From assembly GCA_963772165.1 (NCBI GenBank), contig CAVYWA010000014.1, positions 247,363 to 311,362 on the forward strand: 64,000 nt of DNA, read 5' to 3'. The notes under the pieces are model-generated. The model was given only the letters and a program-made list of their open reading frames with translations, did not search any database and was not told the DNA's origin. Shown here in pieces: positions 20,376 through 46,286 of this stretch. The stretch comes from an uncultured Bacteroidota bacterium. GTDB taxonomy: Bacteria > Bacteroidota > Ignavibacteria > UBA10030 > UBA8401. The stretch's first letter is position 1, and every line of letters starts with the position of its first letter. The translations under genes and the position numbers were made by a program.

Positions 20376-20497
20376 TTAGCAACTTTAAAGGCCTAAATCA
20401 TCAAGGTGAAACGATATGTAACATGAAATAACATATTGTTTGACGTTCATACATATTTTGCTATATTTGTTACATATCATTTTTTCAATCTTATCGC

Positions 20498-22651: not shown

Positions 22652-22855
22652 AAGCTACGAGAACCGAGGAGTGTATTGTGTACAGCCTGATGCATGGATA
22701 GAGGAAATTATCGTTTCAAGCAAAGACGCACAAATTTTCACCCACTAAACGTTCTTAGCCGACCCACTACACACTGGAAATACGCCAATTTTGACCCACG
22801 TCAACGCTGGAATATGTGACCCTGTAGTCAGTATTGTCAAGAAAAGCTGAGTAAT

Positions 22856-23427: not shown

Positions 23428-23832
23428 TTTGAACTTAATAGACAGTCAAGAAACGGATACAAATTTAGTTTGTTATTAGGTGAACCCGCGATTTTTGAGG
23501 CAATTTATTGCTATGACGACAGCTTTTACAGATGCATTTCTATTTTCGTGCCCGAGGTTGTTCAATATTAGACAAATGAATTAAGGGTTAGATAGTCGAT
23601 TATTTTCTTGACAATTCCATGGTCTTATCCTAAATTTGACCTCACATGTGCTCGGGCTTGGGGGGTAGATTGTTTAAACCTCCTGATTCGTTCGATGATG
23701 GAGGTTTTCGCGTTTTGTTGGCGCAGTATTGAATTAAGCCAATGCGTATGAAAATTTTGTTAGACACGGAAGCAGTAATAGCATTTGTGTAAGAAATGTG
23801 ACCTTGCTTTTATTTTATTCAACTAATCAAGA

Positions 23833-25206: not shown

Positions 25207-25210
25207 AAAC

Positions 25211-26485: not shown

Positions 26486-27048
26486 TTATCATAGACGTTC
26501 AGAGAGACTTCTGTAATGGTGGAGTTCTGGCCGCGAGAGATTCTCTTAGTTTAATTAAGCCGCTTAATGAATGCATCGCATGGTGTATTGCGCATGACGT
26601 TCTGTGCGTTTTTACACGAGACTGGCATCCCCCGGATCATTGCTCCTTTATTCCTCAGGGCGGTCCTTGGCCACCCCACTGCATCCAAGGAACACCAGGC
26701 GCAGAGTTTGCAGAAGGTCTAATAGTCCCAGACTCTGCTTTGGTCATTGACATAGAAAAGGATTCGAGCAAATCGAATATGAGTTATTCGGCTTTTGAAA
26801 ACACCAATTTATCTGATGATTTGCATCAATTGCAAGTTAGTCAAATTGCTGCTGTGGGGATTGCAACAGATTATTGTGTTCGAGCCACTGTTTTGGATGC
26901 TCTAAACATTAATCTGAGAGTCCAAGTGTTAATCGATCTTATTAGGCCAATTGACGCAAAACCTGGCGACTCCAGTAAAGCAATTGCAGAAATGCGAAGT
27001 GAGGGTGCAATTCTTTCTACAAGTAGCGATTGGATGAAATCTTCTTAG
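26464..27048 (+). CDS. pncA: Nicotinamidase/pyrazinamidase (isochorismatase-family cysteine hydrolase)
   Basis: The N-terminus reads ALIIIDVQRDFCNGG. The sequence carries ..TRDWHPPDHCSF.. and ..IATDYCVRATVLDA.., giving the catalytic D-K-C arrangement typical of PncA. Confidence 0.7.
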   Translation: MEMDRALIIIDVQRDFCNGGVLAARDSLSLIKPLNECIAWCIAHDVLCVFTRDWHPPDHCSFIPQGGPWPPHCIQGTPGAEFAEGLIVPDSALVIDIEKDSSKSNMSYSAFENTNLSDDLHQLQVSQIAAVGIATDYCVRATVLDALNINLRVQVLIDLIRPIDAKPGDSSKAIAEMRSEGAILSTSSDWMKSS

Positions 27049-27488
27049 CGGAAGGCTCGCCTAAGCCGTTCTTGATAGCAAAATTCGCTACTGCATTTGT
27101 GTGCGAGCTAGCATGATGTGAGAAGAAATATGGAGCATGCTCAAGAGTCGCTTATTAACAGATCTTTGAACTTTATCTAACATGAGATGAGAACCTAGAA
27201 GTTGACTTTGCAAGCCAGAATCTTTGAAGTGTAACATCCGTCCAAACAGGCATTCCCCGTGAACACAACCGATACTTTATTATCTCATAAATTGACGCTG
27301 GATATCGCGAGAAACTTATAAAAGGAACTATTTAAGTTATCTAAAGATGCATGTAAAATCATCGTGATTATGCTGATTTAGCGTTTAAGGCCAAGAATTA
27401 AAGGGCAGATTGGCCTAACCTCTCCCTTGCGACAATAATAGCTTTCCAGAATAAATAGAAAATATAGTTTTTTTACTTGTGTTTAATT

Positions 27489-27510
27489 TTGCGAATACAC
27501 AAATTCGCAA
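27489..27510. promoter_or_regulatory. Perfect 8-bp inverted repeat (TTGCGAAT-N6-ATTCGCAA) upstream of the lipoprotein gene
   Basis: It lies 160 bp upstream of ATG 27673 in an AT-rich intergenic region and is an operator-like palindrome. Confidence 0.3.
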
Positions 27511-27672
27511 CATGCCGGTGGGAAAATCATCTGTAGCCCCCACCCTCATTGCCAATTTTAGTGAAAATTTCTTGTCGCCACTATATAGTGATACGATTAA
27601 TTGATTCGTAGAGGTCCGTAGATTTCAAAAATAATCGCATTACAAACAGTTCTGGAAGGAGGAAGGTATCTA

Positions 27673-29343
27673 ATGAATATTTTTTACCGTTTCAAATGCT
27701 TTACAGTTTTGGTAGGCCTTGGGGCATGCATGATTTTTCCTGGATGCAGCTCTTCTAACAATCTGCTCAACTATGACCAAGAGCTTGTTAAATTTCTAGG
27801 TCTCGACCAAGACGGCTACGAAGCGACGGCTCATCCATTCACGCGCGATATCATAGGTCTTATTCCCCCAGACATGCTGGATTCATCTAATGTTAGATTT
27901 CGGTATGTCGATTCAGATGATGGCCCGCAAAACGTTAAATTTAGTGATTCAACATTCAGTAATACAAATTTTGGTTTAAGTTTTTTGTCCATTCTAGGCG
28001 TGCACTTAAATAGCAAAAGTGTAATCAATGTTCAATTCAGCTTTGGAAAAGCATACTTTTTTTCTGGATTTCAGCCATCTAATTTTTCACCGAAATTCTG
28101 CTTAAACAATACTGTTCGAAGTGCTCTGTGGATAGATCGATGGAAGCTTTCGGTCACTGCAAAAAGCGGGCACTCGGATTCCCTTAAATTAAGCCTAGAT
28201 TCTCTGAAAAAGAATTTACCTTCCCTTACAGCTAGCTTTACGAACGGAGACAGCAGTCAATTTACAGTTACATTCCCGCCAGGTTTTTATGCTTTTAAAA
28301 GGCCTGATCCTAGAACCAAGCCTACGTTCACAAGCTTGCCATTCACAACAAAGGATATACCAGATTATGATGAGTTCGATTACCAGTCGGGACCATTGCA
28401 TAATTCGCAGGGTGATACAATTCTAACAGGCAAGAATTTCACAATACGTTGTCAGATCGGGAGTAAATTCGATCCGTCACTTGACTCACTTTCTATATCT
28501 CTTAATTCGATGCCAATAAATAATTCAGATGGGGTAATGCAAGCAAAAACCCTTAACTTAGACACCTGCGGTTGCAGCACTGTGACCTTGTGTGAATTGG
28601 ATATTCAGGGTTTTACCCCGATGCGGCGGTCGATCAATAATGCGCTTAGATCCCATTTGTACCTGAAACTTCTAGATCCTACGTTACCCCGCGCAGAAAT
28701 AACCAGCCCCACTAAACAGACAGAATATATCGCTAAAGATTCTCTGCTTCTTCAATCTCTTGGATTTAAAATTCAGAGTAATAGCTATAACATCGTTTCT
28801 ATTACCATCACAGCAAATGAGATTGGAAAGAATGGTAGTGGAAAGAAATTCGTAATTGCCAGCAAGCTTGTAAACTTACCACCCTCTATCAGTGCTACCC
28901 AAGACTCAATTCAATTTAATAATGTCGATCAGTTTGTGGAGGGACATGAGTATCAAATATCAGGTGAGGTTCAGGACCAGGATCACAATAGTTACCCAAT
29001 TGTTAATTCAAAATTTTTAGTTGTCAAAAAAGAATTTCCGATTATTGTGCCCAGCTTTGATCTGAGCACAATCATCATCAAATCAGATTCAGATGAACTT
29101 GCACTTGATGGGATTGTAATACCAGATCCTGCTCGCATAACCGCTGTTGTACTGAGAGCTGGAGATGCAACCGTCGATTCTTCAAGCTATGATCTCCCGG
29201 ATACGGATAAAATAAATTTGATGACGATGTTTCCCCGGTTAAAGTTGTCACAGGATGTCTTTTTAAAAAATAGAAGTTTACAAATGACATTCTATGCATA
29301 TACACCTTGGCACAGTAAGGTATTAGTCAACCCCACACGATAA
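27673..29343 (+). CDS. Hypothetical lipoprotein (lipobox ..IFPGC)
   Basis: The 556 aa ORF has a signal peptide with Cys after ..MIFPG. It is AT-rich and Ser/Asn/Thr-rich. Confidence 0.5.
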   Translation: MNIFYRFKCFTVLVGLGACMIFPGCSSSNNLLNYDQELVKFLGLDQDGYEATAHPFTRDIIGLIPPDMLDSSNVRFRYVDSDDGPQNVKFSDSTFSNTNFGLSFLSILGVHLNSKSVINVQFSFGKAYFFSGFQPSNFSPKFCLNNTVRSALWIDRWKLSVTAKSGHSDSLKLSLDSLKKNLPSLTASFTNGDSSQFTVTFPPGFYAFKRPDPRTKPTFTSLPFTTKDIPDYDEFDYQSGPLHNSQGDTILTGKNFTIRCQIGSKFDPSLDSLSISLNSMPINNSDGVMQAKTLNLDTCGCSTVTLCELDIQGFTPMRRSINNALRSHLYLKLLDPTLPRAEITSPTKQTEYIAKDSLLLQSLGFKIQSNSYNIVSITITANEIGKNGSGKKFVIASKLVNLPPSISATQDSIQFNNVDQFVEGHEYQISGEVQDQDHNSYPIVNSKFLVVKKEFPIIVPSFDLSTIIIKSDSDELALDGIVIPDPARITAVVLRAGDATVDSSSYDLPDTDKINLMTMFPRLKLSQDVFLKNRSLQMTFYAYTPWHSKVLVNPTR

Positions 29344-29896
29344 CGATACTAGATCAACGACCGGTTCACCTTATAGCGCAAGGCCTTAACACGATGTTCA
29401 TGAAAGACTCTTCAATTTCCATAAAGGTTCAAAGCGATAGCGTAAAAACAATTGACGCAGTCCTTGTCGATTCACACGGGAATACAACTCTTCTTACGCG
29501 GACGCCAGTAGATTCTCAAAAAGTGGTTAAGATTGCCATTCCGGACTCCCTGAGTTTGAATACGGCCACATCGTTATTACACAATTCGATATCTTGGTCG
29601 CTAAGGACAATCTTGGGGATACGTTAAAGACCTATGAACTGAGCCGCAGTGCCGCCACCAGCTCTATTAATTTTCAAGCTAAGAACCCTTAACCTAAGAG
29701 ACGTTACGCCGCTCATTCAGAATATTGATAACTAACTCCATTATAAATTTTTAGCTATGAGCAAGGTCAGTAAGATATAGTCCCACAATCTAATTAAGTA
29801 GAAATTGGCTTAGATTGCTCTCCTCTAGGAGTGTCGTGATGTCTCATAGGTAATTTTAGAACTCTTGACAGTTGTTTAATTAAACAATATTATAGA

Positions 29897-31192
29897 ATGA
29901 AAAACGCCTTAGCTTTGTTCATAAACATTTTTCTAATGTCCCTCTGTCTTAATGCTCAAGCACAATTTCAACGTCTTTCGATTTTGCCCCAAGCCAACAT
30001 AATAATAACTGGTAGTCAACCAGCCAAGGTTAAAGTACTCAGCATTGATTATTACAGAGACGCGCCCAAAAGCACGGATACTGTTTCTGGAGTGAAATAT
30101 AATCAAGTGTATTCTACTGGTGAAATAATTATTAAAATCAATGGAAAAGTCACAGCCAGGACGTTTCAGTCATTGGTTGAGCCCGATGATTCTCTGATCC
30201 TCATAGAGCCAGCGTTTGCAGGTGAAGCTTGCATAAAACTAAACAAATCTAATCCCGAAACTAAGACTATTAAAAACATTGAACTTGAAGTAAAGACACA
30301 TACTGAAATTGGAAACATACCTGATGATAGGTGTGTTCAACAAACATCAATAATATTTCATAATTGGGGTCAAAATATATCGCAAGAAGAGTATTGGAAT
30401 AGAGCAAAGTGTTTAGATATTCTCCAAAAGAGTGGGCAATTGTCTACAGATAATAATGGCATCCTGTCACACGCATCAATGAACATTATGAATCTAGTTT
30501 ACAATAGATATGATTCCATTCCGCGTAATAACAAGACTTTTAAAGTTTTAATTGATAGGGGCTTCATTCTTGTCGATGAAAAGGGAGAACTTACAAAAGA
30601 GAGCAGGGAACGATTAAAGCAGTTTTATTATTATAAGTATGCTCTTTCTGATGCAAAGCGATTGGATACATTATGGCGTGAATATTCGGCAATAGGAACT
30701 AACCATAGAGCTGACTCCTTGACAGTCTCAAATAATGCAGAAGCCGCTTATTATAACAATGACTCTGTCTTAACAACTCTAGATTCGCGGAATAAAGAAC
30801 TCAGAGATACTTTGATACGCGATGCTAGATATGTTTTAATGGTAGCCTGGAAGCCGGTTGATTTCAATAAATATGTGCAGTGCGGTTCGTATCAATCAAA
30901 TAAGGGACTATTTACCTCTCATCCTCTGTTCCTAACCTCGGACTATGATATGGAGCAAATAGGAAAGAAGATTCATTTCGACACGTTATCTGATTCAGAA
31001 CGCAAAACAAGACTTGAACAATTATTAGGGTTACCTCCTACTGCAGACAACGACCTTTTTTGTGAGTTTTGGGTTAGAGAAGGAGATGTATTTCGGCCTA
31101 CGATTGATTCGACTCTCAATTTTAGCTACGCGGCCTCTAGGGTAAGTGAAGCATACCTAGAAGAGTTCGCTACTTTTTCAGATAATTCGTAG
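29897..31192 (+). CDS. Hypothetical secreted protein
   Basis: The 431 aa ORF has a signal peptide reading MKNALALFINIFLMSLCLNAQA. It is AT-rich. Confidence 0.45.
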   Translation: MKNALALFINIFLMSLCLNAQAQFQRLSILPQANIIITGSQPAKVKVLSIDYYRDAPKSTDTVSGVKYNQVYSTGEIIIKINGKVTARTFQSLVEPDDSLILIEPAFAGEACIKLNKSNPETKTIKNIELEVKTHTEIGNIPDDRCVQQTSIIFHNWGQNISQEEYWNRAKCLDILQKSGQLSTDNNGILSHASMNIMNLVYNRYDSIPRNNKTFKVLIDRGFILVDEKGELTKESRERLKQFYYYKYALSDAKRLDTLWREYSAIGTNHRADSLTVSNNAEAAYYNNDSVLTTLDSRNKELRDTLIRDARYVLMVAWKPVDFNKYVQCGSYQSNKGLFTSHPLFLTSDYDMEQIGKKIHFDTLSDSERKTRLEQLLGLPPTADNDLFCEFWVREGDVFRPTIDSTLNFSYAASRVSEAYLEEFATFSDNS

Positions 31193-32162
31193 AAAACGAA
31201 GTGATTTTGAATCAATTTCCATTCACTGGATTGGGGTACACCTGGGATTACAATCCTAAAAACACTAGTCATATCGGAGTTACTGAATTCGTGTTAAACG
31301 AGAAAAGGAAAGTCTATGTCAGACAAACATTGAGTACTTAATGACTATTTAAATGCTCTTGCCAAAAGGCTGTCAAGCGATAGAAGATGACGAGAAAAAC
31401 GGTAGGGTATAAGATCGCCGAATGACACAATGTTTCCGTTGCTTACGGATGCAGCCTAACAAGAAGGGAAATCTATTCATATTATCTGTTTTCTTTGTCA
31501 GTCAATACTGCTGCCTTTCTAACGATATTAAAGCCACCGAGCCCCCCATCTTTTCTCTAAATTTTCCCTTGAATGAGTGGTGGATGTCTCCTAATTGGTG
31601 ATTGCAGCAGCCCTATTAAATCAGGACTCGCAGCGGTAAATGCGAATTATTACGCGACTTTGTTACAATTTGGTTACATGAGCGTTCATTTCATGCAAAA
31701 GCCGGTGTAATTACAGGGGCTTTATGTTGATCCGACGGTCTTAGAAGGCGAGTGCTCTATTCTGCTGAGTCAATTAAGCGAAATAGCTCTTCTGGAAATC
31801 TCGTTGGCATTTATGATCGGACCTTATTAGTAAACAGATTTCGTAGCTCAAAATCTAACCAGAATTCCCCCAGTGCAATGCAAAGAAACTTTACCGGCCA
31901 TTCATTCTAAGTTCTATTCCCGACTGAAGGACATTCTAATAACCTCATGCAATGTCTGTTTTCCTTCCAAAAAATACCTGATTTATGCTATTGCATGTTT
32001 CTGGCCAAAAGAATATGATTTGGACATTCAATTAACCTTTTGAATTTGTCGTTGACAGCATTAGGTCGAGAATAAAGTGCATAGGGCCTCAGTTTGTGCG
32101 GTTGCAACCATCCTTCCAATTTCCTACATTTGTGCATTATTTCAGGCGGAAAAAGCGGTCTT

Positions 32163-34953
32163 ATGAACACCCACTCCCCGGGGCAATCCAAAACGAATAA
32201 TTCATATCGAGTTACCGAAGCTCAAACGCGGTTTAGCCTTATTGATCCCGAGCTTCAAAAAGCTGGATGGAATCTCTCTGATCGAACGCAAGTTAAATTC
32301 GAGATTCCGGTTGACGGGTATGACGGCTCGGGCGGTGGCGGATTCACCGATTACACTTTGTATAGAACAAATGGCGAAATCCTCGCGGTGGTAGAAGCAA
32401 AGCGAACAAGCCGTGACCCGCGAGAAGGGGAGAAACAGGTTCTTGAATACGTTACTGCGATAGAGAAGAAGCAGAGCTTCCGTCCATTCGCATTCATGGC
32501 GAATGGTGAGGATGTATTCTTCTGGGAGAGTGATACCACAGCCCAACGCCACGTTGCGGGATTCTTCTCGCGTGAGAATCTTGAGCGCCTTCTTTTCTTA
32601 AAGCAAAATAAAAAGCCGCTCAACTCAGTCCTTCCGAATAAAACGATCATCGACCGGAGCTACCAGGTCGAAGCGATTCGTAGAATCTCCGAAGCAGTTG
32701 AAAAGAAAAAACGAAAAGCTCTCCTCGTGATGGCGACGGGGACCGGCAAGACCCGCACGATCATGGCGTTGATCGATGTCTTCCTGCGGGCTCACGCCGC
32801 GCAGAAGGTTCTCTTTCTTGCCGACAGGGACGCTCTTGTCGACCAGGCGCTCAGCGACGGCATCAAGGCCCATCTCCCTCACGAATCGCGGACGAGGATA
32901 CGAACCTATTCGATCGACACAACCGCACGACTCTACGTCTCCACGCTTCAAACCCTCGAGATGTGTTACGATAAATTCACTCCAGCAGATTTCGATCTCG
33001 TCATAACTGACGAATGCCACCGTTCGATTTACAATAAATTCACCGACGTGCTGGCTTATTTCGATGCTGTGCACATCGGACTGACCGCGACGCCTGCGGA
33101 ATTCATCGACCGAGATACGTTCAAGTTTTTTGATTGCGAGGGGAGAGTGCCGACATTTCTCTATCCGTTTGATAAGGCAGTGGAGGAGAAGTATCTGGTA
33201 GACAAAAATGTTTATGCTGCACAGACAAAGTTTCAAAGGGAAGGAATAAAAGGGGCGAATCTCAGCGAAGTAGATAAAGAGACCCTTCGCAGCCGCGGGA
33301 TCGATCCCGATGATCTCGACTACGAAGGGACCGATCTTGAACGCAAGGTGACAAACAAGGACACATTGCGGAGTCAGTGGGAAGAGTTTATGGATGTCTG
33401 CTACAAAGACTCCACAGGCCAGCTTCCAGGGAAATCGATTATTTTTGCCATCACACACAATCATGCGATGCGTTTGTCTGAAACTTTCGACGAGATGTAT
33501 CCCGAGTATGAAGGGAAGCTCGTTCAGGTAATTGACTCAAAGATGGAACGTGCCAAGACGCTTCTTGACGATTTCAAGAAGCAGAATTTTCCTCGCATTG
33601 CAATTTCTGTAGACATGCTCGATACAGGCGTGGACGTTCCCGAAGTGGTCAACCTTGCCTTCATGAAGCCGGTCAATTCGCAGATCAAATTCTGGCAGAT
33701 GATTGGACGTGGCACGAGGAACCAGGAGGCCTGCAGGCACTATGAGTGGCTGCCGAACAGAAATAAAGAAGAATTCCTAATCGTTGATTATTGGGAGAAC
33801 TTCGAGCACTTCAATATGATGCCGGCTCAGGAGGAGGGAGTTTCGCAAATCCCGGTTCTGGTGACAATTTTCAACACGCGATTAGATAAGCTTCGCATCT
33901 TTCAGGGAAATCAGACATTCCCCGATGCGCTGCGGGTCATTCGCGACCTGAGAAGTGACATCGCGCGGATCCCGCTACAATCCTTTTCGGTGAAGAAAGT
34001 ATTCAACGAAGTGCGTGAAGCGTGGGAAGACGAGTTCTGGAAGTACTCTCACCGAGCAAAAGATAGAATTTCTGCGGATGAAAGTTGGACCGCTTCTGCG
34101 GTATGTTCCCAACGTGCGTCCGGTTGAGGCATCTTTATAAGTAAGATGGAGCGCTGTGGACTTGCACACCTCCAGCACAAAGATCTCGCTTCTTATATAA
34201 CCTCAATTCGCGAAGATGTAGGGTTACTTCCGACGACATTGGGCGAAGTGCAATCGAGGCAGAAATACGTCGATCAGCTTATGTCGAACGATTTCTGGGT
34301 GAACCACACGCTTGCAACAATTGACGAAGCGAAAGAGGCGCTCTCCCCAGTAATGAAGTTCAAACGCGAGCGACCGTCGTTCGTTTTCGAACTGGGGCTT
34401 GACGATGTGATTGCAATGCGCAAGTGGGTCGTGGTAAGAAAAGATTCTCAAAAGATGTATATCGAAGAGTACCGAAAACTAGTAGAAGCGAAGATCGAGA
34501 AGATCGCTGCCGAGCATCCGACAGTAAAGAAGATTAAGAATAAGGTTGAGATTGACAATGAGGATATGATACGATTGGAGGAGACGCTCGAAGCGGAGCT
34601 TGGAACGGACGAGATTAGCCTCGACGATGAGAATATGCTGAAGGCGTTTGGTGTGCGCGTTGGAAGCTTGGTGGACTTCCTTAAACATGTGCTCGGACTT
34701 GAAGCGCTCCCCTCGTACGAAACTGTTGTGAGGAAGGCATTCGATGCCTTCATCCTTGAGCACAACTACAATTCAGATCAGTCAAGGTTCCTGCGTGTAA
34801 TGCAGAGTGTGTTTTTGCAGCGGAGAAAAGCTGCAGCTTGCGGATCTGTATGAAGAGCCGTTTACGAACTTCGGTGCGAATGCGGTAGAGAAACTGTTTG
34901 CGGGAAATGAAATTACTGAACTAATTGAGTTGGCAAAGAGATTGGCGCCGTAA
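32163..34953 (+). pseudogene. hsdR: Type I restriction enzyme R subunit (HsdR), disrupted by an in-frame TGA at 34125-34127 and a frameshift near 34801-34853
   Basis: The N-terminal region has the HsdR_N motif (TEAQTRFSLIDPELQKAGW). The helicase region reads MATGTGKT..VITDECHRS. After the in-frame stop the same frame continues into the EcoEI_R_C-like domain (34146-34853). The final ~30 codons (..EEPFTNFGANAVEKLFAGNEITELIELAKRLAP) lie in a third frame. Confidence 0.7.
34862..34884 (+). repeat. Left copy of the 23-bp imperfect direct repeat (tttacgaacttcggtgcgaatg) at the hsdR 3' end
   Basis: It matches 38082-38104 (tttacgaactttggtgcgaatg) at 22 of 23 positions. Both copies encode ..PFTNFGAN.. 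Confidence 0.7.
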
Positions 34954-34999
34954 AATCCTGCATGACACAATTTGAATTAACATTAAGGAGGAAACTAAT

Positions 35000-35371
35000 A
35001 TGGGAAGTTCTGGAACAGGTAAGCTAAGTGATTATTCGGAAAAGACTGAAAAGAAAGGGGGCGGGAAGGCTTCTGGTGCCAGCGGCAAAGATCCTTGTGA
35101 TAACGCATTTGCAACTACACTGGAAGATGTTGATCGATGTGAGTACTTTAAAAATCACAAGTCGGTTCCGCCTATTGGCACAGAAGTCATCGTCTCTCTT
35201 AAAGGCCGCCTTTTGGTTGATACATTGGCCGGCGAGACTATTGGCTACTTACCCACGGAGTATAACTATTTGGCTGGATGTATGAAGAAAAAACGTTCAT
35301 ATGGAGGTCAGGTCTCTTCAGCTACCACGAAACCTGTAATTAGAGTTAGGGTTGACATCGGACCACAATGA
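35000..35371 (+). CDS. Small hypothetical protein with Gly/Lys-rich N-terminus (first gene of the 4-gene cassette)
   Basis: The 123 aa ORF has a strong AAGGAGG RBS 7 nt upstream. Its N-terminus reads MGSSGTGKLSDYSEKTEKKGGGKASGASGK.., and it has a ~80-aa C-terminal domain. Confidence 0.45.
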   Translation: MGSSGTGKLSDYSEKTEKKGGGKASGASGKDPCDNAFATTLEDVDRCEYFKNHKSVPPIGTEVIVSLKGRLLVDTLAGETIGYLPTEYNYLAGCMKKKRSYGGQVSSATTKPVIRVRVDIGPQ

Positions 35372-35372
35372 C

Positions 35373-36740
35373 ATGACGGAAAAGTCTTCGGCAATCTTGC
35401 TCATCGGAGAGACCTGCCTTGATGTGACCCTTTTTCCTGCAGGCACATTGGAAAGGAAGCTTAGGCTCGGCGGAGTGGTACATGCTGCTCGATGTCTTTG
35501 GGGACTTGGGGCTTCATATCAACTGGCATACTTGGCACCAAGTTACTTGTTTCGCCAAATCGAAGACTACGCCCTAGCCCACGGCTGTTCCAACGTCTCA
35601 CAGATCGCGACAATTGAGGGTGCACCCTGCGTTATGCTTATTGAAGAAGCCACTGAAGCGGGTAGTCAGGGATATGACTATCTACTACGAGACGAATTGA
35701 AGTGTGATATCGATACACCAAGATTGGAAAGCATAGTCACAAAAACGGAAATATCTGACATCTTGGTGTTTCCGGGCAACTATGATCTCGCCAAGGTGCT
35801 CGTTGCATGTTCTAAATCAAAGGCTCGGATACATATTGATATCGCAAACGGTGTCAGTAATCTCAGTGTCCTGAAAAAGTTTGTGAGAAAATTTGACACG
35901 GTCATTACTTCCACATCATCAGAAATCTTCTTGGACAAATTTAAGGGGAGTCCCGAGCGCCTTTGCCAAGAAGTTCTTGATATCTATGGTGAGTCTTTCT
36001 TATTGAAAGAGAATCGTGGAGGCTCAAGATTTTACTCGAGCAGAGCACAGAAGAAGCCCATCGAAATCGGGGCTCAGTTGAGACCCATTGTCCACTCTGT
36101 TGGAGTGGGAGATGCGTTCGACGCAGCATTTGTTAATCTTAGGCAGACGCGCGATGACGAATCTGCCCTTACTTGTGCTTCATGGATTGCTGCAGAATAC
36201 GCGGCAACTACGTTCATGGACGACTTTACAGATGGCTGTAGTCGTGTTTTGGCATTGGAACGAGACGAGATCTTATCTCTTCCAGGTGTTTCTCTTCCAT
36301 GGGAAGTCCGTAGCCAATTCAATATTTATATTGCTGCTCCTGATTTTGACTATCTGGATAGAACACACATCGATCGATTAGTCAGTTGTCTCAAGTATCA
36401 CAATTTCAATCCGAGGCTTCCTGTTCGAGAACATGGACAAAGCAGGCCAAACACAGCGAGTCATGAGAAATACGAAATGTGTGGCGCTGATTTGTCATTG
36501 CTCGATGAATGCGATATGTTAGTTGCGCTAAACTTGGGGAATGATCCAGGTACATTGATTGAAATTGGCTTAGCCAAAGGGGCTGGTAAGCCAGTAGTGG
36601 TTTATGATCCATTTGAGAAAGCTAAGAATCTAATGTTAACTCATCTGCCAGACTTCGTGTCATCGAGTCTTGACGGAATAGTGACTAAAGTGTTTGAGAT
36701 AATATCAACGATCAGGCATGCCGCATCACAGAAAAAATAG
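35373..36740 (+). CDS. PfkB-family kinase fused to a nucleoside 2-deoxyribosyltransferase-like (NDT/Rossmann) C-terminal domain
   Basis: The N-terminal half reads ..LLIGETCLD..GGVVHAARCLWGLG.. and ..VGVGDAFDAAFV.. (the PfkB GAGD-type signature). The C-terminal half reads ..NIYIAAPDF..CDMLVALNLGNDPGTLIEIGLAKGAGKPVVVYDP.., an NDT-like DxGTxxExG..GKP pattern. The ATG at 35373 lies 2 nt after the upstream stop. Confidence 0.55.
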   Translation: MTEKSSAILLIGETCLDVTLFPAGTLERKLRLGGVVHAARCLWGLGASYQLAYLAPSYLFRQIEDYALAHGCSNVSQIATIEGAPCVMLIEEATEAGSQGYDYLLRDELKCDIDTPRLESIVTKTEISDILVFPGNYDLAKVLVACSKSKARIHIDIANGVSNLSVLKKFVRKFDTVITSTSSEIFLDKFKGSPERLCQEVLDIYGESFLLKENRGGSRFYSSRAQKKPIEIGAQLRPIVHSVGVGDAFDAAFVNLRQTRDDESALTCASWIAAEYAATTFMDDFTDGCSRVLALERDEILSLPGVSLPWEVRSQFNIYIAAPDFDYLDRTHIDRLVSCLKYHNFNPRLPVREHGQSRPNTASHEKYEMCGADLSLLDECDMLVALNLGNDPGTLIEIGLAKGAGKPVVVYDPFEKAKNLMLTHLPDFVSSSLDGIVTKVFEIISTIRHAASQKK

Positions 36741-37347
36741 ATCCGTTCTTTTAGCCTCCGGGGGCCTTGACTCGACTACATTGGCATATTGGTTATGTCG
36801 AAAAAAAATTGAATTCCTCCCTGTGTTTGTAAACTATGGACAACATTGTGCAAAGACGGAGTACGAAACACTCAGAGAAGTGCTTCCGAAACATTACTCA
36901 AGACACATCCATGTCGTTGATATCTCTGATGTCTACAAGCGCTCGAAATCGCTTTTGATTCGTGAGCCAAACCTGTGGAAAGATCGAGTGAGCTACCGCG
37001 AATTGTATCTTCCTTATCGCAACTTGCTCATTCTGTCCACGGGCGCGGCATTTGCACAGTCCGTAGGTTGCAAGTGTCTCTATGCGGCATTTATCAACAG
37101 CAACCATGCGATTGAAATTGATTGTTCTGTCGAGTTCTTTGGCAGATTGGATTCCATGCTATCGAGCTATGGGTCTGTCAAACTGTTCATGCCATTTCGC
37201 ACAAAATCGAAATATCAGGTAGCAAAGATGGGTATCTCGCTTCGTGCGCCTATTGGGAAAACGTTCTCATGTCAAGTTTCATCGGTCACTCCGTGCGGCG
37301 CCTGTCCAAATTGTGTTGATCGGTTACAGGCACTTCGTCAACTTTGA
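36718..37347 (+). CDS. QueC-like PP-loop ATPase (7-cyano-7-deazaguanine synthase family)
   Basis: The sequence has VLLASGGLDSTT (the SGGxDS PP-loop). A C-terminal Cys cluster reads C-x8-C-x2-C-x2-C (FSCQVSSVTPCGACPNC), matching the QueC Zn site. It overlaps the upstream gene by 23 nt. Confidence 0.7.
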   Translation: MPHHRKNRSVLLASGGLDSTTLAYWLCRKKIEFLPVFVNYGQHCAKTEYETLREVLPKHYSRHIHVVDISDVYKRSKSLLIREPNLWKDRVSYRELYLPYRNLLILSTGAAFAQSVGCKCLYAAFINSNHAIEIDCSVEFFGRLDSMLSSYGSVKLFMPFRTKSKYQVAKMGISLRAPIGKTFSCQVSSVTPCGACPNCVDRLQALRQL

Positions 37348-37376
37348 TATCATGTAGCATCATTTTGAGAATAGTC

Positions 37377-38069
37377 ATGAACCTAATCGTTTTCGCGCGT
37401 AAACTTGCTGATTACCTTAACAAGCTTCCAGATTTTGTAATTTCTAAGCACAACGGTTACGACAAAGAGAGTATGGGTGCGATAATAGCAGATGCGGTAT
37501 TGCAGGCAGGCCTTAATTACCGGACCGTTGTTGCTCCGAGAGTCAAGAGAATTCTCAACGATTATCCAGATGCTGCGACAACTTCAGGTTTCCTAGTAAC
37601 AATCGACAGGTTCGGATGCGATGTAATCCTTCGATGGAATCACCCGGAAAAGCCGAGAAGAGTTCAATCTCTGGCTTTATTGCTTGAAAACGAACAAGTT
37701 GAGACCAAGGATCAATTGCGCGATTGGCTTAAAAATGACGTTAACAGTGAAAAGTTGAGAGCTATCCCGGGAATTGGACCGAAGACCATCGATTATCTGA
37801 AGAACTTATCCGGACTTTCAGCAATTGCCATAGACCGACACATACGTAGGTTAGCCTTCGAAGCAGGTATAATCATTACTGATTACCGTACGTTGCGAAA
37901 GGTGGTCGAGTTTACTGCGGATCTTCTTGATGTTCCGCAAAATGATCCTGACCATTCAATATGGCTCTACATGTCCAAGCCTTCACGATCATATTGTAAG
38001 AAGACCTCAGAATTTTCAGAGCAACCAGCATTCTCTCGCGAAAGAAATGGCAAAGCTTGTTTAATTTGA
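37377..38069 (+). CDS. HhH-GPD superfamily DNA-glycosylase-like protein (OGG/EndoIII-like); an alternative TTG start at 37344 overlaps the queC-like stop
   Basis: The sequence reads ..LRAIPGIGPKTIDYLKNLSGLSAIAIDRHIRRLAFEAG.., a helix-hairpin-helix followed by a Gly/Pro-rich loop and a conserved Asp. Confidence 0.55.
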   Translation: MNLIVFARKLADYLNKLPDFVISKHNGYDKESMGAIIADAVLQAGLNYRTVVAPRVKRILNDYPDAATTSGFLVTIDRFGCDVILRWNHPEKPRRVQSLALLLENEQVETKDQLRDWLKNDVNSEKLRAIPGIGPKTIDYLKNLSGLSAIAIDRHIRRLAFEAGIIITDYRTLRKVVEFTADLLDVPQNDPDHSIWLYMSKPSRSYCKKTSEFSEQPAFSRERNGKACLI

Positions 38070-38253: not shown

Positions 38254-39400
38254 ATGGAACCATTGGTATTCATACATCTGTCAGACATCCACTTTTCCAA
38301 GCCGGGGAAACTGTTTGATTTGGACAGTGAACTCAGAAATCAATTGGAATTGGATGTACAACGGATGACGAAAAACTTTGAGGGAGGAGCCAACGGCATC
38401 TTAGTTTGCGGTGATATCGCTTTCTCTGGAGGTACCGAAAAGTACCAGGAAGCAAGTCGTTGGATTAAGAAGCTACTCGGAATGGCAAAGGTTGAGAACG
38501 GCGGCGTTTGGGTGGTGCCTGGGAATCACGATATAAACTGGACGACTATTCGGAGCAGCAAATCCCTGAGAGAGGCACACACAACACTCCGTGGCACACC
38601 GCTTAGCTCAATCGACCAATGTTTCAAAGAATATCTTGATGACAATATTCTCAGACTCTTTGAACCATTGAAGGAATTCAACTTATTTGCATCTTCTTTT
38701 GATTGCGACTCAACCCCTGATCGCCTATTTTGGCAAGATGATCTTGAACTTAATGATGGCTCAATACTGAAAATAAGAGGGATGAATTCGAGTATAATTT
38801 CGAACGAGTATGATAATGATGAGGGAAAGAGTCTGATACTGACTTCATTTCAGTCAGGCTTTATTGAGGAGCCAAACATTACTTACGTTTCCATGTGTCA
38901 CCACCCACCACAAAGGATTCGTGAAGAAGATGACCTCGAAGATTGCTTGAATTCGAGAGTTGCGATCCAGCTATTTGGACACAAACATCGGCAACGATTG
39001 CGTCGGAACGGTGAAGGTCTCAGAATTTCCGCAGGAGCCAGTACACCCTGCTCGGGATGAGAGTCCATGGGAGCCATGTTATAATTGGATCTCAATTTGT
39101 GTCGATATTACCGAAAGCAATCGGAATCTCGTGGTCGATGTTTGGCCGCGCGTATGGAGACCTGCAAGTAGGACTTTCGAGCCTGAATTTCACGATAGCA
39201 AAGAATTCAGACGATTCACCCTGCCTCTAAAACCGTGGAAAGGCAGTAAGGTAAAGAAAATTCAAGCTCAGGTTGGAGACCAGACCAAAGGCCCCCTGGC
39301 TGTTATTAAGGCGAAGTACCATGGATCCCAAAAGACAATTGGTTTATCGCTTTTTAAGTCTCCCATATACCCAGATTATAGAAATCGCAGTGGGCCTTAG
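38254..39400 (+). pseudogene. Calcineurin-like metallophosphoesterase gene with a probable frameshift near 38990-39060
   Basis: The N-terminal part reads IHLSDIHF..GDIAFSG..GNHD..GHKH in frame 1 (38254-39060). Coding-like sequence continues in frame 2 (38960-39400). Confidence 0.45.
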
Positions 39401-39498
39401 GTTGCTAACGGACCAAGACAAAGGTGTCGAGGATTTGGAACTTTTCAAGCGATTCATTGCGAGAGTGAAAAGAGAGGAAGAGAAACGATGGCTCAGCT

Positions 39499-40215
39499 TT
39501 GGGATTGGGTGGAGGACAAGTACGGGAGCGAAAGAAGCACCACAAACCCCTTCAAGACAAACTGATCGGAGAAAAAACAAATGGAAATGAACCCTCTTTT
39601 TTGGAAGGGTACGGAATGGTTTACCCCAACCCATCAGTTGAGATTCTCCAAAGGCGATGGGTCATCGTGGAATCGATTGCTGATGCCCTAAGTACTCCAC
39701 ACACAGCGAGCCTCGTGGCCCTCTGCGTATGCGGCCTGAAGGAAGATTCCATAATCAACCTATTGAACGAGAAGTTCAAGGCTGAAGACGATTCATTCAA
39801 CATCCGATCTAACATAGAAGGGTTGAGATCCCTCGGAACCGCGATCTTGGCTAGGATCATAGAATATGAGAAATCACAAAACTGCACATTCACCGCTCTT
39901 GCTGTCCATTGTGCTAGTTTTGGGAAATCGAAAGGGGACGCATTCACCGCAGATATCATTGAAATTGCTGGAAAATTTCTTGCAAAAAAAACGCTGCAGA
40001 TTCGATCGCGCACTTCAACCGAATCAAGCTTGATGAAAAACAAAGACCTTGAAGGGAACGATGTAGGGACACAAGCGCTCAATCTCGCCAAAGGGCTGCA
40101 AAAGAGCACTATGGAACTTGTGAAGAAATTGAGCACTAATTTTGAATTGCTAGCTGAAGAAAGCAATATGTTCTGGTGGTTAGTCGGGGAATCAGAACAT
40201 TGGGCGAGTCTCTAA
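39499..40215 (+). CDS. Hypothetical protein, probably a fragment of a larger frameshifted gene
   Basis: This 238 aa ORF is too long to arise by chance at this GC content. It overlaps neighbouring ORFs in other frames (39273-39590 and 40176-40601). Confidence 0.35.
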   Translation: MGLGGGQVRERKKHHKPLQDKLIGEKTNGNEPSFLEGYGMVYPNPSVEILQRRWVIVESIADALSTPHTASLVALCVCGLKEDSIINLLNEKFKAEDDSFNIRSNIEGLRSLGTAILARIIEYEKSQNCTFTALAVHCASFGKSKGDAFTADIIEIAGKFLAKKTLQIRSRTSTESSLMKNKDLEGNDVGTQALNLAKGLQKSTMELVKKLSTNFELLAEESNMFWWLVGESEHWASL

Positions 40216-40601
40216 TCGACCTTCCTCATCCTGCCCGTTTGCTATTAGCGGCCAAAGAGTTGGCTGCCCTGACCACTCTTAGACCAGGACCACCATCAGC
40301 CAAGGCGATTCTTTTAAAATGTGCGAAACTGACTAAGGATAAGTCAAGCGGATCATCTTCGCTGAAGCATGCCATAAATTCGATTCCGCAGGAATGGCTT
40401 TCTGCGACTCTCAATCCGAATAGCCAAGTTCTAGAACTTGCTAACACCTCTGATGTTTGCAGGACACAGACGAATGGAAAGCGGAAGCAAAACGGCATGG
40501 TCGAGCAGCTTTTGAAAAAGAATAGGGATACCTACAGACAAGCAGATATCAGATGCAGATCTGGCATTCCAGTATTATCAAGAATGTCTGCTCGAAGCTG
40601 A
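40176..40601 (+). CDS. Hypothetical protein fragment (continuation of the preceding reading frame chain)
   Basis: The 141 aa ORF has a GTG start and overlaps the end of 39499-40215 by 40 nt in a different frame. Confidence 0.3.
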   Translation: MVSRGIRTLGESLIDLPHPARLLLAAKELAALTTLRPGPPSAKAILLKCAKLTKDKSSGSSSLKHAINSIPQEWLSATLNPNSQVLELANTSDVCRTQTNGKRKQNGMVEQLLKKNRDTYRQADIRCRSGIPVLSRMSARS

Positions 40602-40692: not shown

Positions 40693-42333
40693 ATGTCGGT
40701 CGCTTCAAAGGGAAAGGGAGAGGCAGATCAGGGAGAAATGCGAGAGCTGTTTTCAGGTGAAGACTTGAAGGCTGCAGACGTTGAGCGGATAATGGATTCA
40801 TCAGGAACCAGGTTGATCGTTCTTGCTGGCGCTGTGGATGCTGGCAAAACAACATTATTGCTGACGATAGTTCATCAATTCTACAAGGGCGGATTTGGGG
40901 ACTTCAACTTTGCGGGGTCAAGAACACTACTTGCGTTTGATAGAAGAGCTTTTGATTCAAATATTATATCAGGAAGAACTGTACCGACCACTCAACATAC
41001 AATTTCGAGTCTTGATAACATCAAGTTTCTGCATCTGGCAGTTAGAAATAAAGATATGAGTGGGCCAATAACCAACTTGCTATTTACAGATATCTCTGGG
41101 GAGAATTTTCGGGATGCGAGCGACTCTGTTGAGGAATGCCGCAAACTTTGGGTTCTCCGTCGAGCCGACAGATTGGTTCTTTTATTCGACGGGAACAAGA
41201 TAGCCGATCCGGCTAACGCCAGAAAGCGAAAGTAGAGGGAATGATGTTGCTGAGAAGATGCGTCGAAGCGGAAATGATTGGCGGACAATCCAAAATCGAT
41301 ATCATCTTCACAAAAAAGGATATCTTAGAAACCTCTCCAGATAAAGGAAGAGCACTTCCGTTTGTGGATGAGATAAAGGCCGAAATTCTGAGTAAGTTCA
41401 TGGGCTCTTTGGGAACTATTAGTTTCTTCTCTGTCGCGGCTCGTCCAACGATGAAGCCAATACTTGGCGAGACTTATGGCTTCAAGGAATTCCTACCAGC
41501 TTGGATTGATGAGAGTCCATTTATTCGGACGATAAAAAGAGACGTTCCGAACACGTTATCCGAAAATTCCCGAATGTTTTTATCTTCGAAGCTTGAGGAG
41601 GAATATGTGATAACTGATGTAGCAATTCATCGGTGCAGTCAACTTCTGGTCGGATTACCAGACACAGGGAAGTCGACCTTCCTTGCTGCTTTGTATCACC
41701 AGGTTGAAGGCGGTGACATCAAAGGTTCTTTGGTATTGGAGAGGTTAGGGTCTGATATCGAGTATCTAAACAGAATCAGGGAAGATTGGTTGAAATGCGA
41801 AAAGATTAGTAGAGCTACTGGTGTCAAAAGCAAAAAAGTACAATGCTTCTACGGGATCCCAACACATCATTACTTTCAGGGTCACGATTCCTGATTTACT
41901 TGGTGAGATTTTTGACCATCAATTCGAGGAGAGAAGATGGACTGATGAATTCGAAGAAATGGTTATTTATGTAATGGTCTCGTGGTTTTTATTCATCCCG
42001 ATAAAGTCACTCCGGTGAGATCTATTATGGAGGCAAACGTTGTAGTGGAAATGGTTGAAGAAAAGGACTCTCTAATGCCCCCCTTGTAACATGGACGGCA
42101 AAGGGTCCGCGACTCAGATAAAGTTGGTAGATATTCTCCAATGCATACTCGATGGTACGGCTGAGGATAAAGTTACTCCCGTTGCGATTGTAATATCGGC
42201 GTGGGATCGGGTGCTTTCATTACCTAAAGAGTGCGGCGGAAATCCCAAAAGATTCGGTCAAAAAGAGACTGCCTTTGTTGAACCAGTTCTTGGATTGAAT
42301 TACGAGAGGTTATTACAAGATATTCGGAATTAG
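40693..42333 (+). pseudogene. Double-GTPase-like (two tandem P-loop GTPase domains) gene with three or more frameshifts
   Basis: Domain 1 reads GAVDAGKTT (G1), DISGE (G3) and, after the first frame break, ..KIDIIFTKKDIL (G4). Domain 2 reads GLPDTGKST (G1), ..PDLLGE.. (G3) and ..VAIVISAWD... Frame changes occur at ~41217-41235, ~41821-41894 and 42018-42091. Confidence 0.5.
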
Positions 42334-44785: not shown

Positions 44786-46286
44786 ATGCTCACCGACCCA
44801 CAACTTAAATCTAAAGTCGACGCTCTCTGGGACCGCTTCTGGTCCGGCGGCATCGCCAATCCTATTACTGCCATCGAGCAGATGTCCTATCTCATATTTC
44901 TCAAGCGGCTGGAGGATATGGACAATGCCCGTGCTGCGGGCGCGAAGAGAAAGAACGAATTATATCGTTCTATTTTCCACGGGAGCAAAGACTGTCGGTG
45001 GTCTGTACTGGAGTCAATTGCCTGGCGATCAGATGCTAAAGCATGTACGTGACAAGGTCTTCGACTTCCTGCGCGAACTTGGGAGCAACACAAGCTCGTT
45101 TACCCAGCACATGCAGGATGCCGTCTTCATCATCCCGAAGGCATCGCTGCTGCAGGAGGGGGTGAAGATCATCGACGATATGCACATTGCCGAGCAAAAC
45201 ATCGATGTGCAGGGAGATCTCTACGAATATCTGCTAATGCAGCTCACCACTGCGGGGAAGAACGGACAGTTCCGGACGCCAAGGCACATCATCCGGATGA
45301 TGGTGAAGCTGGTAAACCCGAAAGTGGGCGACCGTATCTGCGACCCGGCTGCGGGCACGGGCGGGTTTCTAGTGAACGCGTACGAGCACATACTCGAATC
45401 GAACACATCCCCCGACGTTCTTGAATACGACGACGAAGGGAAACCGCATCACTTAATCGGCGACAAGATCGCGGATAAGAAGCTGCTGAAGTTTCTGAAG
45501 AGCCAGGCGTTGACAGGTTACGACTTCGACGCGACGATGACGCGCATCGGCGCAATGAATCTGATGCTGCACGGGATCGACAATCCGAATTTTCGGTATA
45601 CAGATACACTCTCAAAGTCGTTTACCGAGAAGGGACAATACGACGTAATCCTCGCCAACCCGCCATTCAAGGGATCGATCGACAAGAGCGACATCAACGA
45701 ACGCTTCTCAACGAAGACGACGAAAACGGAATTGCTTTTTATTGAATTGATGTACGACCTCTTGGTGACCGGCGGACGTTGCGGCGTGATCGTGCCCGAC
45801 GGTGTATTGTTCGGGACGAGCAACGCACACATTGCAACGCGGCGGATTCTTGCTGACAAGTGCAAGCTCGAAGGCGTTGTCTCGATGCCATCTGGAGTAT
45901 TCAAGCCCTACGCCGGAGTCTCGACTGCGGTGCTCGTGTTCCAGAAAGGCGGCACCACGGACAATGTCTGGTTTTATGACATGAAGGCGGATGGTTTCTC
46001 GCTGGATGATAGGCGACAGAAGATAGCCGAGAACGATATTCCCGACATCGTTAAGCATTGGGGAGATCGAGGCAAATCGAAAATCGGCAATCGTAAATCG
46101 AAAATGTTTGCCGTTCCCGCCGACGAAATCCGTTCCAACAAATACGACCTATCCATTTCACGATACAAGCTAATCGAGCACAAGAAAATTGAATACGAGA
46201 AGCCGGAGGCGACGATGAAGAAGTTACTGGAGTTGGAGAGAAAAATCGGAAACGATATTGAATCAATTCAAAGAATGCTTAAATGA
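44786..46286 (+). pseudogene. hsdM: Type I R-M methyltransferase subunit HsdM, frameshifted near 44990-45020
   Basis: The HsdM_N segment (MLTDPQLKSKVDALWDRFWSGGIANPITAIEQMSYLIFLKRLED..RWS) is in one frame. The methylase core (..DPAAGTGGFL..ANPPFKG..) is in another frame (44925-46286). Confidence 0.7.

Follow-up and report, generated by a model that had tools for sequence, protein, structure and literature searches.

We analysed a 64,000-nucleotide stretch of DNA (the window) from an uncultured Bacteroidota bacterium (contig CAVYWA010000014.1 of GenBank assembly GCA_963772165.1). One of its genes, at positions 35373-36740 of the plus strand, encodes a 455-amino-acid (aa) fusion of a PfkB-fold kinase domain with a nucleoside 2-deoxyribosyltransferase (NDT) domain. 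Our results indicate that this fusion is a signature component of a mobile, self-contained and probably anti-phage conflict cassette. The core of the cassette is made up of a small HIRAN-fold protein with a Gly-rich N-terminal tail, the fusion, and a QueC-family, Cap9-like predicted ligase, and it is followed by an exchangeable fourth gene. The cassette appears to be a hitherto undescribed relative of bacterial anti-phage systems in which a protein terminus is modified with a 7-deazaguanine base.

A four-gene cassette with obligate linkage

Among 86 loci seeded with the fusion, 81 carried all four genes in one order and on one strand, with neighbouring genes abutting or overlapping, and the exceptions mostly lay at contig ends. 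The order was a small protein of about 122 aa, the fusion, a QueC-family protein of about 209 aa, and a helix-hairpin-helix protein of about 215 aa. Metagenome contigs seeded with the small protein served as a control for seeding bias, and here loci with enough downstream sequence were counted. The fusion was present in 63 of 63 such loci, the QueC-like gene in 55 of 55, and the fourth gene, related to 8-oxoguanine glycosylases (OGG-like), in 54 of 54. None of the 63 loci paired the tailed HIRAN protein with a tRNA-guanine transglycosylase (TGT)-like gene in place of the fusion. The linkage of these genes is obligate.

The fourth gene is exchangeable, a pattern drawn from four variant loci. 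Plasmid p509 of Bacillus mycoides (L090 5998-7974) encodes a PfkB-NDT-QueC triple fusion of 658 aa downstream of a small protein that starts MGSTGTG, and a second triple-fusion representative (P0197) has 655 aa. On p509 a NUDIX gene lies upstream, the OGG-like open reading frame (ORF) is absent downstream, and the RefSeq name of the triple fusion is '7-cyano-7-deazaguanine synthase'. The other three variants are sister cassettes. The fourth position is held by an in-operon anti-phage HD dGTPase in Moraxella (L087 7147-8637), by a restriction endonuclease in Agrobacterium, where the OGG-like gene has moved upstream, and by a small membrane protein in Haloarcula. On pHsi55 of Haloarcula sinaiiensis, this protein, encoded after the fusion and the QueC-like gene, has 96 aa and is apparently a predicted membrane protein. 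Defence systems are usually built in this way, with a fixed core and a last gene that can be swapped.

The PfkB-NDT fusion is a widespread, conserved, full-length family and no chance fusion. A word-indexed search gave 1,442 matches at E<=1e-3, and the best 120 were nearly all of about 445 aa with the same architecture. An exhaustive search of 1.84 billion representatives returned 166 clusters (50% identity) at E<=1e-30. The family spans more than ten bacterial phyla and was found in genomes of Bacteroidota, Acidobacteriota, Planctomycetota, Chloroflexota, Verrucomicrobiota, Actinomycetes and TM6, as well as in Alpha-, Beta-, Gamma- and Deltaproteobacteria. It occurs on plasmids too, its sister subfamily is carried by a haloarchaeal plasmid, and a contig of an Anaerolineales metagenome-assembled genome (L006) holds a 100% match to the window fusion. 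The original prediction, made from the letters of the window, had called the combination of domains unusual. In fact the architecture is common, is annotated in public records, and has already been mentioned in the literature (PMC13329287). No full-length homologue was found in 50,697 phage records, and a phage origin of the fusion, or a role in phage DNA hypermodification, was rejected on this basis.

The first gene of the cassette encodes a putative substrate of the QueC-like ligase. Its start, and with it the N-terminus MGSSG, is fixed by an AAGGAGG located 8 nucleotides before the ATG. A Gly/Ser/Lys tail of about 30 residues, disordered in the structure model, precedes a beta domain (residues 31-123) with the HIRAN beta-barrel fold. 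The N-terminal motif M-G-S-[ST]-G-[ST]-G is nearly invariant among the small proteins, and variant tails read MSGSGGG in Moraxella, MSGSG in Agrobacterium and MGGGGS in Haloarcula. In Haloarcula sinaiiensis pHsi55 (L089 3751-4386) the tailed protein starts MGGGGSS and has two tandem HIRAN-like repeats, as read from its sequence. On an Agrobacterium larrymoorei plasmid (L088 4997-5392) the tailed protein (MSGSGRRKSRGSS..., 131 aa) is not in the gene table used, which is incomplete, and the small protein is likewise missing from the gene tables at some other loci. Because of this absence, annotation-based neighbourhood surveys may miss it. PADLOC and NCBIfam hold no model for the small tailed protein.

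The gene for the QueC-family protein overlaps the 3' end of the fusion gene, which makes a link to 7-deazaguanine chemistry reasonable. Its product reached 86.4 bits with the NCBIfam QueC model TIGR00364, below the cut-off of 150.3 bits, and matched the PADLOC QueC model PDLC00911 at E=8.5e-26. When the profile of the QueC-like family was compared with the PDB, Cap9 (9nto_B) was the best match (1e-18), followed by canonical QueC (9.6e-15). The protein retains SGGxDS, YGQ..E, RN, DC, PF(x)4K and CQ(x)6CxxCxxCxD, motifs that closely match the Cap9 signature listed by Libby et al. (PMC13329287).

For the OGG-like family, the profile matched Ogg2-type 8-oxoguanine glycosylase/AP lyases in the PDB (9o00 at 1.4e-6, and 3fhg and 3fhf at E of about 1e-6). 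G132-I-G134-P-K136, with the catalytic Lys, and D153-R-H155, with the catalytic Asp of the DRHI motif, are invariant and align to the Ogg2 structures; K136 and D153 of this alignment numbering are K147 and D164 of the ORF that begins at 37344. The PADLOC OGG model PDLC00910 was matched by 18 of 28 OGG-like members (best 1.8e-6). We take PDLC00910 and PDLC00911 to be accessory models of the type IV cyclic-oligonucleotide-based anti-phage signalling system (CBASS). In the window, the mechanically called OGG-like ORF begins at TTG 37344, and homologues align from the Met at 37377 (MNLIVFARKL...). This copy also carries a C-terminal extension of about 20 residues that is absent in its relatives.

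Conserved catalytic centres in the kinase-NDT fusion

The original prediction had placed the fusion at 35373-36740, and these coordinates are correct. The N-terminus MTEKSSAILLIGE, read from ATG 35373, agrees with the homologues, and this ATG lies 1 nucleotide past the TGA stop of the upstream gene; the ORF list offers TTG 35352 as an alternative start. The motifs on which the prediction relied were all located in the protein: a Gly-rich N-terminal motif LRLGG (G33 G34), VGVGDAFDAAF (residues 243-253), and the NDT pattern in NDPGTLIEIGLAKGAGKP (residues 390-407). Its division of the protein into a PfkB-fold kinase and an NDT-family domain was borne out by the Pfam score of the C-terminal domain and by structure prediction for the N-terminal one.

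The C-terminal domain matched Pfam PF05014 (Nuc_deoxyrib_tr) over residues 318-413 with E=3.9e-14 and 53.2 bits, above the cut-off of 28.8, and the related PF15891 stayed below threshold (20.5 against 30). It had been considered that this domain might belong to another Rossmann family such as SLOG/LOG or TIR. This identity was ruled out, with SLOG at E=0.055 against 3.9e-14 for NDT. A profile built from 61 members and compared with the PDB matched the NDTs 6evs (6.4e-7) and 7m5h (6.8e-4), and then the CMP N-glycosidase 4jen (2.1e-3). Residue conservation was assessed by column counts over 61 full-length homologues at 43-53% identity. Invariant in this domain are Y319, D324, F325, Y342-H-N-F345, P350, E353, G355, D373, D391-P-G393, E397 and G399. 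Among these, Y319, D373, D391 and E397 (61 of 61) align with the Tyr, the two Asp and the Glu nucleophile of 6evs and 7m5h, and E397 is the predicted nucleophile. The domain thus shares with classical NDTs (PF05014; 6evs, 7m5h, 2a0k, 1f8x) the N-terminal Tyr, two Asp and the Glu of D-x-G-T-x-x-E, and its putative activity is the transfer of deoxyribose between bases. Unlike them, it is fused to a kinase, carries the invariant block Y342-H-N-F..P..E353-x-G-Q, and stands in a conflict-type operon and not in a salvage context.

By sequence, the N-terminal domain gave only marginal PfkB matches, whether against Pfam, NCBIfam or the PDB (phmmer and hmmsearch). For the window protein PF00294 scored E=0.11 and 12.2 bits, under the 25.8-bit cut-off, and it matched 16 of 34 family members at E<=1 (best 5e-6); NCBIfam gave a marginal match to an iolC kinase. 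The fold assignment was settled by structure prediction. An AlphaFold2 model built on the family alignment was of very high confidence (pLDDT 95.2, pTM 0.93) and showed a ribokinase fold in the N-terminal domain. Foldseek matched this domain to ketohexokinases and ribokinases in the PDB at E=7e-15, with TM scores of 0.65-0.71 (target length) over about 320 columns at 13-18% identity. In an hhalign comparison of the family with E. coli RbsK, G244-V-G246-D247 fell on A252-A-G-D255 (C-terminal 75 residues aligned, probability 39%), and HMMER with an Arabidopsis ribokinase put GVGD in the identical register.

Invariant positions of the kinase domain are G12, D17, R31, G33, G34, H37, R40, E95, Q99, Y101, D156, S180-T181-S182, K212-E-N-R-G-G217, H241-S, G244, G246 and D247; for D17 the count is 60 of 61 homologues, the remaining row being a gap. 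Both catalytic centres, namely G244-x-G246-D247 of the kinase and Y319, D373, D391 and E397 of the NDT domain, are therefore invariant across the homologues, and in an alignment with the sister subfamily at about 20% identity D247, Y319, D373, D391 and E397 are invariant as well. Judged by this pattern of conservation, both active sites are under selection. The features of the cassette are collected in Table 1.

Table 1. Features of the cassette in the window
Feature	Position	Strand	Basis and remarks
Ribosome-binding site AAGGAGG	34985..34991	+	Read from sequence; 8 nt upstream of first cassette ATG
Small protein, 123 aa, putative substrate of the QueC-like ligase	35000..35371	+	M-G-S-S-G-T-G N-terminus, disordered tail, HIRAN-fold domain
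Fusion, N-terminal ribokinase/PfkB-fold domain	35373..36290	+	Residues ~1-305; Foldseek against PDB, hhalign against RbsK, column counts, sister-subfamily alignment
Fusion, C-terminal nucleoside 2-deoxyribosyltransferase domain	36312..36740	+	Residues ~314-455; PF05014, profile alignments to 6evs, 7m5h and 2a0k, column counts
QueC-family (Cap9-like) predicted ATP-dependent ligase, 209 aa	36718..37347	+	PF06508 8.6e-31; overlaps fusion gene by 23 nt
Ogg2/Cap11-like HhH-GPD predicted DNA glycosylase/lyase	37344..38069	+	Likely true start ATG 37377; profile matches to Ogg2 structures

Proposed chemistry and competing explanations

A possible activity of the cassette is suggested by type IV CBASS, in which Cap9 couples 7-carboxy-7-deazaguanine to Gly2 of the CD-NTase. 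The N-terminal extension of this CD-NTase is flexible and starts with the NDG acceptor motif M(G/S)G(G/S)GG, and the TGT-like Cap10 binds the tethered base such that its catalytic Asp is positioned for transfer onto N9 (Wassarman et al. 2025, bioRxiv 10.1101/2025.04.06.647259). In our cassette, Met1 of the HIRAN protein would be removed to expose Gly2, and the QueC-like enzyme would use ATP to join a carboxylated 7-deazaguanine-type base to the alpha-amine of this Gly2. The ligation step is modelled on Cap9 with the CD-NTase and on QatC with QatB, the latter itself a proposed reaction. The NDT domain would fill the functional slot of Cap10, and NDT chemistry is the deoxynucleoside equivalent of a Cap10-type transfer onto N9. 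Via a deoxyribosyl-enzyme intermediate on Glu397, it would move a (deoxy)ribosyl group from a donor nucleoside to N9 of the tethered base, and the kinase domain (Asp247) would then phosphorylate the sugar. The product would be a nucleoside or nucleotide handle on a protein of HIRAN-type fold. The product of the fourth gene, be it a glycosylase/lyase, a dGTPase, a restriction endonuclease or a membrane protein, might act as effector or provide a reset function, and a neighbouring dGTPase could, speculatively, be a ready source of deoxyguanosine.

By analogy with these systems, the reading that we favour, though only tentatively, is that the ligase loads the HIRAN protein and that the NDT and kinase domains build a tethered nucleoside or nucleotide on it. 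We hold with more confidence than this chemistry that fusion, QueC-like ligase and tailed protein act together as parts of a conflict system. The original prediction had suggested coupled base exchange and phosphorylation of a nucleoside, in either order, which could yield a modified nucleotide in the cassette pathway. Its domains stood, but the rarity of their combination did not, and the cassette is no pathway of nucleoside biosynthesis. It contains a protein whose N-terminal Gly motif is typical of substrates in QueC-family protein conjugation, together with a ligase akin to Cap9 and a glycosylase akin to Cap11. Should base exchange and phosphorylation occur, the likely substrate is a protein-tethered base and not free preQ0.

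Several points weigh against the tethered-nucleotide proposal. The NXXE Mg/phosphate motif of PfkB enzymes is absent in the window subfamily, which has S180-T181-S182-(S/A)183-x184 there, with S180-T181-S182 invariant. When the columns are equated by the sister-subfamily alignment and by spacing, an invariant Thr takes the place of Asn, and that of Glu is filled by an acidic residue in only 24 of 61 sequences. The plasmid-borne sister subfamily retains LN(A/G/R)(H/W)E at the aligned columns (LNAHE, LNGWE, LNRHE). An invariant KENRGG stands where PfkB proteins usually have a TxGxxG strand, with K(L/C)GxxG in the sister subfamily. Compared with the ribokinase/PfkB family, the fusion is thus alike in its fold, GG dipeptide, GxGD anion hole and catalytic Asp, but unlike in its identity of 13-18%, its score under the Pfam threshold, its STS(S/A) for NXXE and its KENRGG for TxGxxG. 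It had been anticipated that the N-terminal domain might lack the catalytic residues of a kinase; the catalytic Asp and the anion hole are invariant, but NXXE is lost. By its motifs, the kinase of the window subfamily is non-canonical. Because of the loss of NXXE, kinase activity of the fusion is likely but not certain, and this domain may have an altered activity or none.

In the QueC-like family the Tyr of canonical YPDC is an invariant Glu (E133). The Tyr and Asp of canonical QueC are mentioned as base-recognising residues (PMC13279940), and we read the Tyr of YPDC as one of them; because it is replaced by Glu, the ligated acid may not be 7-carboxy-7-deazaguanine. Members of the NDT superfamily that act on 5'-phosphates (DNPH1, MilB) fit the reverse order, kinase and then glycosidase. 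The HIRAN fold in HLTF binds DNA ends, and the 3'-end-binding motif of HLTF is NxYDxNAI; as we read the HIRAN alignment of the small proteins, an obvious counterpart of this motif is absent. Neither PADLOC (2023) nor NCBIfam (2026) includes a model for the fusion, and no defence phenotype has been recorded. Finally, Libby et al. (PMC13329287), the sole paper found to mention the fusion/QueC pair, suggests that the pair serves purine salvage.

The reverse order would turn the NDT domain into a nucleoside monophosphate (NMP) N-glycosidase like DNPH1, MilB and BlsM, which acts after the kinase and supplies the base to the ligase. The protein-conjugation conflict system would be kept, and the fusion would work upstream of the ligase and not on a tethered base. 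Such a supply would benefit a portable cassette found in many phyla, and the base pocket of the QueC-like protein has diverged in a way that points to a non-standard acid; no obvious carboxylated-base nucleoside is known, however, on which the fusion could act. DPGTLIEIG of the fusion resembles SPGTHIEIG of the CMP N-glycosidase 4jen, but in the profile matches true NDTs outrank the NMP glycosidases (6evs 6.4e-7 against 4jen 2.1e-3), and the N-terminal YIAAPDF is NDT-like, without the Ser-x-Arg-Gly-Gly phosphate loop of DNPH1. Asp391, whose counterpart in NDTs binds the 3'-OH of the sugar, is invariant. The triple fusion with QueC is equally compatible with metabolic channelling, and the salvage reading of Libby et al. 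would also suit this order of events. We consider it unlikely, but it is the main rival of the reading that we favour.

A housekeeping or biosynthetic role, in which the cassette would salvage (7-deaza)purines or make a modified free nucleoside or nucleotide for tRNA or DNA, with neither conflict nor protein substrate, appears to us improbable. It agrees with the proposed purine salvage, with the origin of both fusion domains in families of nucleoside metabolism, and with QueC being a queuosine-pathway family. It would leave two components unexplained, the Ogg2-like glycosylase and the obligate protein of HIRAN fold, in which the M-G-S-x-G tail is invariant. The cassette is patchily distributed in bacteria and archaea, on plasmids, beside phage-like genes and in defence islands, its dGTPase and restriction endonuclease are swappable, and it has no inserting enzyme of the TGT or DpdA type; the QueC-like protein falls under the NCBIfam QueC cut-off and is nearer to Cap9. 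The absence of the fusion from the phage records argues against DNA hypermodification by phages. More improbable still is a toxic NDT domain that, once infection occurs, depletes NAD+, ATP or deoxynucleoside monophosphates as an N-glycosidase, with the kinase-like domain regulatory or ligand-sensing and the QueC-like and HIRAN proteins as sensor. NDT-like N-glycosidases are effectors in some retrons (Eco1/Sen2), and the catalytic Glu and Asp of the NDT domain are invariant here. Against this, the fourth position already holds typical exchangeable genes of the effector type and the fusion belongs to the invariant core and not to the swappable part, and its kinase Asp and anion hole, being invariant too, argue for catalysis and not mere sensing.

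Genomic setting, known relatives and significance

The window cassette sits between hsdR and hsdM/hsdS, that is, inside a type I restriction-modification operon. This operon appears to have been split open. The hsdR gene is divided between the ORFs 32094-34127 and 34146-34853, of which the second has an EcoEI_R_C domain. About 10 kb downstream of it follow hsdM (44925-46286) and hsdS (46283-47413), and the cassette shares the interval with other defence-like genes. Positions 38254-40601 hold a calcineurin-like metallophosphoesterase of 268 aa, followed by short overlapping ORFs without family matches. The metallophosphoesterase matches the first approximately 230 of 994 positions of the NCBIfam profile 'DS8 anti-phage protein', and likewise PADLOC PDC-S60; the region looks like a longer gene broken by frameshifts, or possibly by assembly indels. 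Two adjacent short ORFs at 40693-41894 (180 and 217 aa), each with a partial Double-GTPase (DO-GTPase1/2) domain, look like pieces of one larger GTPase gene of a conflict system. Upstream, positions 18001-32000 have a G+C content of 0.38-0.44, against 0.46-0.51 on either side, and contain large ORFs without Pfam or NCBIfam matches (25181-26485, 27673-29343, 29897-31192); this block was possibly acquired horizontally.

In other loci, neighbours of the cassette included PD-Lambda-1, SRA-HNH, integrases and resolvases. An HD-domain dGTPase (PADLOC dGTPase, E=4.9e-141) adjoined the main cassette more often than any other gene (11 of 80 genome loci, for example L075 10719-12140), and did so on both sides and in both orientations. 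This dGTPase could be a deoxyguanosine-supplying partner or a mere defence-island neighbour. Some Rhodobacterales loci adjoin terminase-like and tape-measure-like ORFs, as read from the ORF sequences. One plasmid copy is flanked by a pair of AAA ATPase and helicase on one side and by a dsDNA nuclease on the other, and the copy on Bacillus mycoides p509 lies near a retron-type HNH plus AAA ATPase. In six Bacteroidota loci (L015, L017, L019, L020, L026 and L046) a recurrent gene pair was found 10-35 nucleotides upstream of the cassette, encoding a protein of about 430 aa, ATPase-like by its N-terminal sequence, and one of about 170 aa; this pair may represent a separate defence system of two genes or an accessory module. 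Our tally of flanking genes covers the top families and is descriptive, not a statistical test of enrichment in defence islands. The defence and mobile setting is circumstantial support for an anti-phage role.

Type IV CBASS is among the closest known systems. Both have a QueC-family ligase, for which Cap9 (9nto_B) is the nearest solved relative of ours. Cap11, an OGG-related protein, is found in a third of type IV CBASS operons (Wassarman et al., bioRxiv 10.1101/2025.04.06.647259), and the helix-hairpin-helix glycosylase of our cassette is OGG-type and matches PADLOC PDLC00910. The partner with a disordered M-G-S-x-G tail, whose modification is putative, recalls the acceptor motif M(G/S)G(G/S)GG, and a base-exchange enzyme is encoded between tailed partner, ligase and glycosylase. 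In contrast to type IV CBASS, family scans of the four proteins found neither a CD-NTase domain nor a TGT domain, and the cassette has no cyclic-nucleotide effector. The tailed protein is instead a small HIRAN-fold protein, an NDT-fold putative transglycosylase fused to a ribokinase-fold kinase is present, and the Tyr before Asp-Cys (canonical QueC, and Cap9 by alignment) is replaced in the QueC-like family.

Compared with the QatABCD system (PMC13279940, PMC13376578, PMC13639016), the cassette lacks homologues of the QatA ATPase and of the QatD TatD nuclease. QatC models barely register on the QueC-like protein (NCBIfam E=0.014, PADLOC E=0.025), and QatC has about 400 aa with extensions, against 209 aa here. 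The N-terminus of QatB is unstructured, and an MGTS motif in it is essential (PMC13279940); the N-terminal motif of our tailed protein agrees with this MGTS. QatB is helical, whereas the tailed protein here has the HIRAN beta fold.

When the literature was searched for QueC in connection with PfkB, NDT, HIRAN or defence, Libby et al. (2026, Biochem J, PMC13329287) was the only paper retrieved. There, 'cluster 4' of a QueC sequence similarity network has a PF00294-PF05014 neighbour in about 89% of neighbourhoods, probably the same gene pair as ours. Its QueC-like protein is some 10 residues shorter than QueC and carries SGGxDS, YGQ(x)6E and a Cys motif at the C-terminus. In the sections consulted, neither the tailed HIRAN protein nor the OGG-like gene is described, and the same holds for the variable fourth gene and the defence setting. 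The Cys motif given there, CH(x)5CxxCxGCxK, is nearer to CHVAEYPCGRCRGCEK of the sister subfamily than to CQ(x)6CGACPNCVDR of the window, and for this reason the published cluster may centre on the variant subfamily. In the literature searched, with one older comparative-genomics work outside it, the four genes were not described as a unit, and neither the tailed HIRAN substrate nor the exchange of the fourth gene was mentioned; parallels to Cap9 and Cap11 and a defence reading were likewise not found. The PfkB-NDT architecture and its pairing with QueC were known already, and the four-gene context appears to be new.

Protein deazaguanylation was discovered in 2025, and the step that follows conjugation, i.e. 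the transfer target of Cap10 in type IV CBASS and the fate of QatB in Qat, is still enigmatic. The cassette is a natural experiment in this respect, in which ligase, Gly-tailed substrate and OGG-like partner are kept and the TGT-like enzyme is swapped. The chemistry of the replacement enzymes, deoxyribosyl transfer to purine N9 and sugar phosphorylation, is well understood, and because of this the next step is directly testable by mass spectrometry. The tail would be expected to gain +176 Da, as for the NDG adduct (Wassarman et al., bioRxiv 10.1101/2025.04.06.647259), then about +116 Da with a deoxyribosyl group and about +80 Da with a phosphate, where the +116 and +80 Da are our own calculations. 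The conjugation reading would also correct the published 'purine salvage' annotation and provide a possible HIRAN-based DNA-end sensor in prokaryotic immunity. The defence catalogues would gain a four-gene system widespread over more than ten bacterial phyla, with a divergent sister on a haloarchaeal plasmid.

A wider reading, which we regard as doubtful, is that the cassette represents a third class of QueC-family protein-nucleobase conjugation immunity. The HIRAN-tethered base would be built into a deoxynucleoside and nucleotide by the NDT-kinase fusion, the tethered nucleotide could join or compete at DNA 3' ends during phage replication, and glycosylase, dGTPase, restriction endonuclease and membrane proteins would be exchangeable outputs. 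If true, this would by analogy give Cap10 of type IV CBASS a role in glycosyl transfer onto N9 of a tethered base.

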